IMG/VR virus record: IMGVR_UViG_3300045988_111617 | Reading direction: 5' to 3' (one strand) | DNA from: a virus | DNA: 64,000 nucleotides | Part shown: positions 46,400 through 49,300 of the stretch, piece after piece | How positions within the stretch are numbered: position 1 is the first letter of the stretch | Layout: each line of letters starts with the position of its first letter | The notes under the pieces: generated by a model | The model's database searches: none | What the model was told of the DNA's origin: nothing | What the model saw: the letters and a program-made list of their open reading frames with translations, nothing else | Made by a program: the position numbers and the translations under genes

Positions 46400-49300
46400 T
46401 TATATCCCTATACAGTATTTAGCTACTTCTTTTTCTTCTTCAGTAGCATTTCTTATCCAGTTTTCAGAATATCCATTCTCTAAGAATAATGTATTATCTT
46501 TCTCAACTTTTCTTAATCTTATATCATTATTTTCTTTAGAATAAGTTCCTATATTATCAGTAGCTGATTTAATTTGATTTGGATTTATGAAACTATAAGA
46601 ATCTCCTCCTTCTTCAACTTCATTTTTATATACTGTTCCATCATATCCAAGTTCTTGCATTAATTTCCTCAATTCAGAATTAGATAATCCTCTAAGTGTA
46701 GAATATTTATCTCTAGATATAATTCCTTGCTTATATAATTCATTTAACATAGAACTTGTGGATTCATGTACATAATCAGAAGTTCTTAGTGGATTTTTTA
46801 AATTAATAAATAATCCATATTGAGTACCTTTAATAGTATCAGCGGTTTCCTTACTGCCCACATGACCAAATGGTTCTGAGGTCCAAGGCATAGTCCTTGA
46901 AGGATGGTCCATATCAAATACACCATTAAAATCAAATGGGGTGTTATGATACATTATCTTAGGTTCACCATTTTTATCAACTACTTTAGAAGCACTCTTT
47001 GGGTCATTTTCCCAATCTCCAAACCACTCTTTGAAAGCTTTAGTTCTTACATGAACCCATTGCCTCTCATCTAAATTAGAAGGTTTATCATTAGGAGCTA
47101 AGATATTTCCATCTTTATCATATTTAGCAGTACTTAATATATCAAGCATTTCTGGAGTATACTCTTCTGGCCTTAGTCTAACAGAGGCTTCTTTTGCAGT
47201 TCCTACTCTCATATTCTTATATTTAGATGACATTATCTTTTTATATATAGAATATCTCATAGGTTCAGCTTCTTGAATTCCTCTAATAAGATTCCAAAGT
47301 TTCTTAAAGAATTCCTTAATCTTTTGTCCTACAGTTTTGGATTTTTGATTAATAACATATTCTCTAAATCTTTCTGCTAACCATTCTTCCAATTCTACAG
47401 GGTCTGTAAGTTTAGATTCCTCAGAAGCTTCCTTCATCAAATTAGCTCTCTCATTTCCATTAAGTCCTAAACTAAATACAGCATGAAAAGCTTCATGATA
47501 AGTAGTACCTTCTGCTGCAACATTACTTAATGTAATACCTGCATTACTAAATGTTCCCCAAGCATTTTTTCCTGCTATATGTATTAGGCCTCTAACAACT
47601 TCAACAGGAATGTTAGGAAGTACAGTACTTAACCATTTGACTTCTTTATCAATGTCAAATTTTTCAGATTCTTTCTTAGCTTCTCTAAGTTTTACAGTAG
47701 GATTGCCACTTATATTTGCTCCCATCATAGCAGCAAAATCTTCAAATGACATTTCATCATTATCAGCAGTAGTAGTTGGAGTTTCTTGTTTAACTTCTGT
47801 GCCTATAGGAGTAGCTGTTTCAGTTGGAAAAACAGAAGGCATATTTTTTAATTCTGTAAATTCCTTCTTATGTTTTTCTACAAACTCTTGTCCTCTAGGC
47901 CCAGCACCTGGACCTTCAAAAGATTTTTTAATACCCTCAAATACAGTATTTATAGGAGTTTCTACATTAAGATTAGCTCCTATATAGGATTGTCCATTAG
48001 GTAACACAATACCATAATTATATCCTGCTACTTTCTTTGGTCCTTTACTATTTAATCCAGAAGTTAATACAGGTATTTTTATAATTTGTACAGGAGTTCC
48101 TAATATTTCTCCAGCACTAACCATGTAAGTTTTATGAATCTTCTTGTCTCTACTATCTAAATAATAACCTATTTTACTATTAGGAAGCTTAGAATTATCA
48201 GATAAGTCTTCTATTGGATTCATATCATCGTGATTTTCAAATAGAATATCTGACTTTTCTATATTGGTAGATGTAACTTTAGGATTAACATGATTTCTTA
48301 CTTCATCTGCTGCTACCCCAATAACCCATTCTCCTGTAGTTCTATCAATTACTTTTCCATTAATAATAGCTTTATTATTCCACATGGTTGGACCTTCAGT
48401 AGCATTTCCATATTGCTTTTGTAAGGTATATAAGACTTGACATCTTTCTATATCTTCCATTTTTACAGGCATTTTTCTTGCTCCATCTTTGAGAGAAAGA
48501 TATTCCCCATTAGGAAATAGAGTAACCTGTTTATTATTAACAGTTACAACAACACTATTATCATTAGATTTGGGAGTATTACCAGGAGTAGGATTATTAA
48601 AAGGAGTTTTACTTCCTTTTATTTCTCCCTTTTCTCCAACAGGATTAGCAGTAAACCAGCCTCCAGTAGTATGATTAGTATTAACTGCATTAGTTGAAAC
48701 TATTCCTGAGTCTAGAATTGTTTTATTGTATTCAGGGGTGTTTATAGAAGCTCTATCTATATTAAAATTTAATCCCATTTTATATAAATCCCCAAACAAA
48801 ATTTCTGGGTCTTTATAAACTCCTACAACAGTTTCTGAATTTTCATAAACACTAGTGCCATCTGCCTTTTTGACCAGTTTCTTTATGACATTTCCTGAAC
48901 TATCTAAAACATTCTTTGTAACTCTGATAATACCATCCTCTACAATATAAAAATTAAGATTAGGAATATAAAGATACTTACTTAATTCCTGTACTCTATT
49001 TAATAAATCTGCTTGAGTTTTTGCATTTATAATAGCTTCAACACTCTTTCTAATATTTTTTACTACTGAAGATTCTGCATTTTTTGGAGAAGTTAAATCA
49101 AATTCTTTTGAACTAAATTTTCTAACTTTAGCTCCTACTAATGTGTATCCTCCTGACATCCCTTTTCTAGAATTAGGTATAGCTATATATACCATACCAT
49201 TCTTTTGAGAAATATTTTTAGGTCTGCTGACTTCATTTAATTTTATAGAAGAAGCTCCTAAATCCAAAGAACCATTCCTAACAATAGCAAAAGTAATATT

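Follow-up and report, generated by a model that had tools for sequence, protein, structure and literature searches.

The window analysed here is a 64,000-nucleotide stretch of viral DNA (IMG/VR record IMGVR_UViG_3300045988_111617). Its minus strand encodes, at 46400..52651, a protein of 2083 amino acids (aa), and the C-terminal part of this protein almost certainly contains an ADP-ribosyltransferase (ART) domain of the ART-PolyVal family (aa 1892-2036, window 46544..46978). The open reading frame (ORF) is continuous in the window, i.e. the ART domain is in frame with the body of the protein. The ORF list, BLASTP and synteny identified the protein as the orthologue of ΦcrAss001 gp47, a virion cargo protein described as 'RNAP-associated protein' (RNAP, RNA polymerase). 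With the 2083-aa protein as query, BLASTP matched ΦcrAss001 gp47 at 3e-96, with 24% identity over ~1600 aligned columns. All features of this protein described below lie on the minus strand.

Three upstream genes on the same strand matched the Pfam families crAss_MUZ (muzzle), crAss_CARG1 and crAss_CARGO2. The gene order is thus muzzle, cargo 1, cargo 2 and the gp47 orthologue, followed by convergent gp49 and gp50, and both the orthology and the synteny features of a gp47-type cargo protein are present. The gp50 orthologue (35041..42276, plus strand) is the virion RNA polymerase; it contains the SGSDFDVDK motif and is 43% identical to ΦcrAss001 gp50 over 1385 aa. The gp49 orthologue (42280..46338, plus strand), an RNAP-associated cargo protein, is 36% identical to ΦcrAss001 gp49 over its full length. 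In ΦcrAss001, gp45, gp46, gp47, gp49 and gp50 were all detected in virions by mass spectrometry, and the model proposed for these virion proteins is that they are cargo which the phage ejects into its host (PMC10172136). Because its ΦcrAss001 orthologue is virion cargo, it is reasonable to infer packaging for the 2083-aa protein, which is very probably carried in the virion and ejected. A preliminary description of this DNA, made from the letters alone, had proposed that an ART would be delivered alongside a virion RNAP, and this is consistent with a locus where the gp49 and gp50 orthologues adjoin. The phage itself is a divergent Steigviridae-like crassvirus. Its RNAP core is at most ~50% identical in amino acids to any phage record, and megablast of the gp47 gene against phage records matched only a 58-nt patch. 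Both GC skew and AT skew change sign at ~46 kb (window about 46000-46400), where the plus block ending with gp49 meets the minus block starting with gp47; the skew flip therefore marks the boundary of convergent transcription.

The assignment of the domain relies on the Pfam profile PF18760. A Pfam scan of the whole protein returned this single family (E 6.4e-13, 50.1 bits, cutoff 31.2), and the match spans profile positions 1-139 of 140. The isolated domain scored 57.1 bits against the same cutoff of 31.2, and all 24 aligned homologues matched the same family. No family of the R-S-E class (ADPrib_exo_Tox, Enterotoxin_a, Pertussis_S1, ART) appeared at E<=1 in the scan of the whole protein. These results leave very little doubt that aa 1892-2036 form an ART-PolyVal domain (PF18760, Tox-ART-HYD2). 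The active site of PF18760 was described by its authors as His on strand 1, Tyr on strand 2 and Asp on strand 5 (H-Y-D), and the family was placed in the Tox-ART-HYD2 clade as kin of PARPs and diphtheria/cholix toxins (PMC5512222). The same authors contrast this site explicitly with the R-S-E site of T4 Alt/VIP2 (PMC5512222). The family is large: a profile search of 1.84 billion representatives found 32,399 representative proteins, many of them multi-copy giants and some with up to 18 copies.

Structure prediction agreed with the profile. An ART (split beta-sheet) fold, the fold of PF18760, was predicted for the domain. In structural matching, the domain model scored 7.1 and 6.4 with diphtheria-toxin homologues, 6.6 with PARP4, 6.3 with tankyrase, 6.2 with PARP1, 6.1 with cyanophage A4 gp28, 5.9 with exotoxin A and 5.0-5.8 with RES/ParT toxins. 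Pertussis-type toxins (4.1-4.6) and heat-labile enterotoxin (3.4) stood at the bottom. These matches predict an ART fold, but one that groups with the H-Y-E/D members of the superfamily. Among predicted viral structures, Foldseek gave 53 matches at E<=1e-3, many of them named ART-PolyVal; the latter include an N4-like virion RNA polymerase as well as proteins from two crass phages, cr116_1 and cr130_1. The top 50 of these matches contain neither T4 Alt nor ModA or ModB. When the ART profile was searched against the sequences of PDB chains, no ART was matched; the only match was a spurious one to a royal-jelly protein (E 0.023). The ART-like domain that the preliminary description had placed at the C-terminus is thus confirmed by both the PF18760 match and the predicted fold.

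Conservation was examined with 552 domain copies from 172 proteins aligned in one register. The strand-1 motif Y-H-N-T (46940..46951) contains H1902 (46946-46948), the predicted catalytic His, in a column that is 95% His and in the first long strand of the model (residues 12-17). The motif G-Y-D-G (46637..46648) at the start of strand 5 contains D2004 (46640-46642), the predicted catalytic Asp. Its column is 95% Asp; D2004 is invariant in the alignment labelled A1 and lies directly before model strand 118-123, the equivalent of strand 5. The family C-terminal signature is present as Q-I-K-S-A-T-D-N-I-G-T-Y (46541..46576; Q 94%, K 99%, A 86%, N 83%, G 83%). Every highly conserved family residue listed is retained, i.e. 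H1902, D2004, K2028 (99% Lys), P1897 (98% Pro), G1895 (96% Gly), F1912 (96% Phe) and Q2026 (94% Gln). The H-Y-D site is incomplete in one position. The strand-1 His and the strand-5 Asp are present and the strand-2 Tyr/aromatic is absent, since strand 2 carries the degenerate motif P-F-G-H-V (46859..46873) in place of the family motif G-[FI]-[YFWH]-F-[TS]. Another particular feature is a subfamily-specific helical insert (aa 1960-1999, 46655..46774; model helices 78-87, 93-98 and 104-113), in which the family columns are 20-80% gaps or insert states.

The preliminary description had assigned the domain to the R-S-E class of cholera toxin, iota toxin and T4 Alt, on the basis of three motifs. 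All three exist: DHPSRTMPW at aa 1915-1923 (window 46883-46909, with R1919), YVHESTSSM at aa 1960-1968 (46748-46774, STS being 1964-1966) and KNEVEEGGD at aa 2009-2017 (46601-46627, E2011-V-E2013). They occur in the order of the triad, the spacings given as about 45 residues are 45 and 47, and the interval 46560-46960 corresponds to aa 1898-2031. Shuffling of the last 200 residues produced an ordered R...S[ST]S...ExE pattern with gaps of 25-70 residues in 1.6-3.3% of cases, and the real protein has it in 1 of 38 windows of 200 aa, so it is mildly unusual and weak evidence alone. The PF18760 signal depends on residues other than these three motifs. The structural positions of the motifs do not agree with the R-S-E class either. 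Strand 1, where the Arg is expected, has H1902, and R1919 falls in a variable loop after it, with a predicted local distance difference test score (pLDDT) of about 53-68. The STS expected on strand 2 sits at the N-terminus of a helix inside the variable insert. The (Q/E)-x-E expected at the ARTT loop and the start of strand 5 is replaced by D2004, and the hairpin that follows strand 5 contains E2011-V-E2013. The family columns at R1919 (S 11%, E 8%, G 7%, 15% gaps), S1964 (9% Ser), T1965 (11% Val), S1966 (an insert column), E2011 (33% gaps) and E2013 (13% Glu) are likewise not conserved. Within homologues 60-76% identical, STS changes to TVS, TVN or TAS and E2011 changes to K; R1919 and E2013 are invariant only within the small crass-specific subfamily which shares this core. 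These two residues may matter locally, yet they do not fill the Arg and Glu positions of an R-S-E triad. Lack of conservation of the R, STS and ExE residues in homologues had been named beforehand as one of two outcomes that would refute the R-S-E proposal, and the triad as a whole was conserved in neither the 552-domain nor the subfamily alignment; the other outcome, no predicted ART fold, did not occur.

ΦcrAss001 gp47 has no ART, whereas the gp47 orthologues of cr85_1, ctcc615 and cr271_1 have a C-terminal one; in cr130_1, cr115_1 and cr116_1 the ART is located near the N-terminus of other giant proteins. Relative to ΦcrAss001 gp47, the window protein has an ART plus a linker inserted between a zincin-like region and the C-terminal tail.

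Comparison with close relatives revealed that the ART core itself is exchanged. Two metagenomic contigs, L010 and L011, come from close relatives of the window phage, and blastn breakpoints define a swapped cassette at 46580..47005 (aa 1883-2024 against L010, aa 1903-2022 against L011; all breakpoints are given in window coordinates). L010 is 97% identical to the window in gp49 protein, 93% in aa 1-1890 of gp47 and 92-93% in the flanking DNA, but the DNA similarity stops at 47006 and resumes at 46579. L011 is 87-89% identical in the gp47 body and about 93% in the flanking DNA, and here the similarity stops at 46946 and resumes at 46585. The ART cores of both contigs are only 16-26% identical to that of the window at the protein level, and they have canonical aromatic strand-2 motifs (GGFWFS and KGFFFT). 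The breakpoints coincide with edge motifs of the family, …ASKVV/…YH on the left and NQIKSA, within the C-terminal signature, on the right. The same discordance was observed in database fragments. Seven fragments have a tail 79-91% identical to the window and cores of 16-26%, and fragments whose core is 51-76% identical to the window have tails of only 24-47%. The disagreement between core and tail identities shows recombinational exchange of ART cores, a cassette-like replacement between near-identical phages. Such an exchange fits a fast-evolving conflict effector.

Three further observations concern the ART-bearing genes of other phages. In three related contigs, L009 (8960-9060), L010 (7760-7860) and L011 (7190-7260), the ART is encoded one frame off (-1) from the body of gp47, at sites corresponding to window about 46990-47010 and 47400. 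These contigs derive from samples ERR4563490 (L009), ERZ10544639 (L010) and SRR3067128 (L011). Each site is an A-run one base short of an in-frame fusion (L009 GGGAAATAAT, L010 GAAAAATTG, L011 TCTAACTTA), which could reflect a homopolymer error, a genuine split, or slippage giving ART-plus and ART-minus isoforms. A programmed -1 frameshift before the ART was considered and not adopted, given the ascertainment bias, the short A-runs and several other frameshifts in L011; because the three contigs were found via short ART-only gene calls, an upstream frameshift was guaranteed by ascertainment. In cr116_1, a 2507-aa coding sequence (L003:8632-16155) contains the linker and ART-PolyVal near its N-terminus and ends with ...GYRIPTEAKYSMAPLKIVGFLPREAGDGIMLPNDITLLTGSDFD. 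Since this segment holds the catalytic motif of the gp50 RNA polymerase, the cr116_1 ART appears to be fused to a (possibly split) virion RNAP, as in the N4-like prototype. The giant coding sequences of cr130_1 (L006:8782-15006) and cr115_1 (L007:8875-14412) contain 31 and 49 in-frame stops under translation table 11; presumably, one of the stop codons is reassigned in these genomes of Suoliviridae.

The ART domain is flanked by conserved elements. A pre-ART linker of roughly 55 residues (aa 1835-1891, 46979..47149; ...LAPNDKPSNLDERQW..VRTKAFKEWFGDW..ASKVV) has the consensus …LAPNxKPSNLxERQ[WY]..VRTKAFKxWFGDW…ASKVV and precedes ART-PolyVal in giant proteins of cr85_1, ctcc615, cr271_1, BF1-TP2, cr116_1 and other crass and Bacteroides phages. 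No Pfam family corresponds to this linker, and the one cluster that covers it is PHROG 30335 (unknown function), with a match at aa 1847-1908. Further upstream, a zincin-like region (47312..47650) was recognized by motif conservation, and its putative metallopeptidase identity comes from the motif HEAFH (aa 1719-1723, window 47483-47497). HEAFH is kept in the gp47 of ΦcrAss001 and cr85_1, and Intestiviridae orthologues have HEQLH. The orthologue in ctcc615, a mouse crassvirus, is named 'RNAP associated protein fused to zincin protease' in GenBank. Among 190 polyvalent proteins, a local jackhmmer search with this region found nothing other than gp47 orthologues, a large protein database yielded 4 unannotated fragments as homologues, and the AF2 model was unusable (pLDDT 50.7). 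The region may represent a crass-specific zincin lineage without a profile. Peptidases of this kind have been proposed to release neighbouring modules of polyvalent proteins (PMC5512222).

Behind the ART lies a conserved C-terminal tail (aa 2047-2083, 46403..46513; ...GYSENWIRNATEEEKEVAKYCIGI), which follows the zincin-like region directly in the ART-less relatives P0193 and ΦcrAss001 gp47. In gp47 orthologues of different crassvirus families (L001, L002, L004 and L005), the tail has a Cys 2-4 residues from the C-terminus. The tail ends are ...KYCIGI in the window, ...KCIAF in cr85_1, ...RCNS in ΦcrAss001, ...ISCM in cr271_1 and ...SSCR in ctcc615, and the Cys-containing tail is retained with or without an ART inserted before it. 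It could serve as a packaging, processing or anchoring signal. At the other end of the protein (window 52007-52390, aa about 88-215), long hydrophobic stretches rich in Gly, Ala and Ser were observed, for example NNAVIAGTTAISGSLGVIWGAL and GMGVSSALSKAPLAAQLIGSSVAGAL, which align by eye with ΦcrAss001 gp47. They may be membrane-active segments relevant to ejection.

Based on these data, we propose that the gp47 orthologue would be packed in the capsid and enter a Bacteroidales host by ejection, either before the DNA or at the same time, along with the virion RNA polymerase formed by gp49/gp50. Possibly freed by the adjacent putative HExxH metallopeptidase, the ART module would then act early in infection, using NAD+ for the ADP-ribosylation of some host macromolecule and so serving host takeover or counter-defence. 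The rapid core swapping would be the outcome of an arms race in which the target is contested. A role as a packaged, injected effector has been proposed for the whole family, with proteins as predicted targets (Iyer et al. 2017, PMC5512222). We consider this complete mechanism, an injected NAD+-using ART on gp47, probable on balance from the sequence and locus.

Several results weigh against this effector mechanism. The first is the strand-2 site. G1929 occupies the aromatic column (Y 41%, F 28%, W 14%, H 9%; 92% Y/F/W/H in the family), H1930 occupies a column that is 82% Phe, and a second mostly aromatic column (Y 57%, F 18%) holds Ile1940. Diphtheria toxin sandwiches nicotinamide between Tyr54 and Tyr65. 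A weak hhalign match of the family alignment to the diphtheria toxin A fragment (E 0.059, 17 columns; a hint only) puts the two aromatic columns at these two tyrosines. Because these columns hold Gly and Ile1940, NAD+ binding may be impaired or altered, although a register shift of one residue may place His in the aromatic column, as in 'GAHFG' of protein P0024. The second concerns the model. Its confidence is moderate (pLDDT 71.7 overall, 53 around model residues 31-40), and Foldseek against the PDB gave no match at E<=1e-3, the weak top matches being A4 gp28, the ART-fold anti-CRISPR AcrF11, RhsP2 and tankyrase. In addition, the HExxH region matched no metallopeptidase family, with none in Pfam at E<=0.1 and only designed-repeat noise from phmmer against the PDB. 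Packaging is deduced through an orthologue that is only 24% identical and itself lacks an ART. Finally, the literature searched shows no PF18760 member biochemically proven to ADP-ribosylate anything.

The atypical strand 2 bears on the alternatives. One possibility, which we regard as unlikely though deserving attention, is that the FGHVG core is a dead or repurposed ART fold that performs no NAD+-dependent transfer and serves gp47 as a binding, structural or packaging module. The loss of the strand-2 aromatic would agree with it, but H1902, D2004 and nearly all other family-invariant residues are kept. Moreover, the FGHVG motif and the polar residues H1916, R1919, E1926, H1962, E1963 and E2013 are conserved across the crass-specific subfamily, whose members are 45-76% identical, and this speaks against decay and in favour of a site that is maintained and possibly remodelled. 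In our main reading, too, the core is an atypical subtype with His and Asp kept and the strand-2 aromatic missing, and its activity or substrate may differ from those of typical members. A tentative extension joins two ideas, and their combination is equally unlikely in our judgement: the gp47 C-terminus would be an exchange slot for injected effectors, with ART cores recombined at the edge motifs to track host targets or immunity, and the FGHVG core would be a remodelled active site with polar residues of its own (those above and H1930) and a different substrate or chemistry. Less probable still is an active enzyme with a non-protein substrate, which would modify nucleic acid (as DarT, RhsP2 and Tpt1/KptA do) or consume NAD+ or NAD-derived immune signals; RhsP2 is among the weak PDB matches, but the best structural matches are protein-modifying H-Y-E enzymes, and the family authors predict protein targets. 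Finally, an R-S-E ART of the cholera-toxin/iota-toxin/T4 Alt type with R1919, S1964-T-S and E2011-x-E2013 as its triad was rejected on the basis of the alignments of the family and the subfamily and of where the residues fall in the secondary structure; we consider it extremely improbable.

Among human gut phages, crassviruses rank first in abundance, and to our knowledge hardly anything has been learned about their takeover of Bacteroides cells apart from the RNA polymerase that they inject. An ART carried by a very probably co-injected protein is thus a concrete, testable candidate for an early host-modifying or anti-defence enzyme. The different cores in one slot of near-identical phages suggest that the module is under arms-race pressure, and it could help to shape host range at the strain level. 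In UniProt, the label 'ART-PolyVal-like' is already in use for crass-phage proteins. An ART on gp47 is not evidently treated in the literature that we searched on crass-like phages with ADP-ribosylation or polyvalent proteins, and on PF18760. What was published in 2017 (PMC5512222) comprises the domain family, the H-Y-D chemistry and the concept of ARTs packaged as parts of giant phage proteins. Our results are for this reason an annotation-level confirmation with a corrected active site rather than a new system, and the cassette swapping of ART cores is the one new point of analysis. The finding is useful as a candidate early effector of crassviruses and for the cassette swapping; it would not surprise a specialist.

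The domain can be compared with several known systems. AcrF11 (a phage anti-CRISPR with an ART fold, PDB 6kyf) and the cyanophage A4 ejection protein gp28 (PDB 9k3a_B), whose alpha+beta domain was left unassigned by the A4 authors, are weak matches with no sequence-level relationship. Unlike diphtheria toxin, exotoxin A and PARP (H-Y-E), to which its sequence identity is 7-15%, the window domain has Asp instead of Glu as the acidic residue, and the two nicotinamide-stacking tyrosines are unmatched in its core. The preliminary description had drawn an analogy to T4 Alt. The proposed logic is the same, with an ART that is packaged in the head, injected along with the DNA and directed at host proteins, RNA polymerase for example (PMC5512222, PMC9503650), and Iyer et al. 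(2017) had already likened the family to head-packaged ARTs such as T4 Alt (PMC5512222). The clade and the active site differ from those of T4 Alt (Alt/VIP2, R-S-E-2). All three R-S-E features were tested and found lacking, and no profile or notable structural similarity to members of that class was found; therefore the domain is not of the T4 Alt clade. The activity and targets of T4 Alt are established by experiment; the activity of the window domain is a prediction. With ΦcrAss001 gp47, the window protein shares the orthologous body, the HEAFH region, the Cys-containing C-terminal tail and the gene order, and differs in having the ART and its linker. The prototype of ART-PolyVal is the virion RNA polymerase of Roseovarius Plymouth podovirus 1 (Iyer et al. 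2017, PMC5512222). The window domain is unlike it in the replaced strand-2 aromatic (PFGHV), in the 40-residue helical insert and in its scaffold, which is a crassvirus gp47 cargo protein and not an N4-like virion RNAP or a MuF protein. It agrees with the family in the full-length profile, the ART fold, the strand-1 His, the strand-5 Asp and the C-terminal signature QIKSA...N.G.F, and also in being part of a giant multidomain phage protein with an adjoining HExxH region in a virion-RNAP context.

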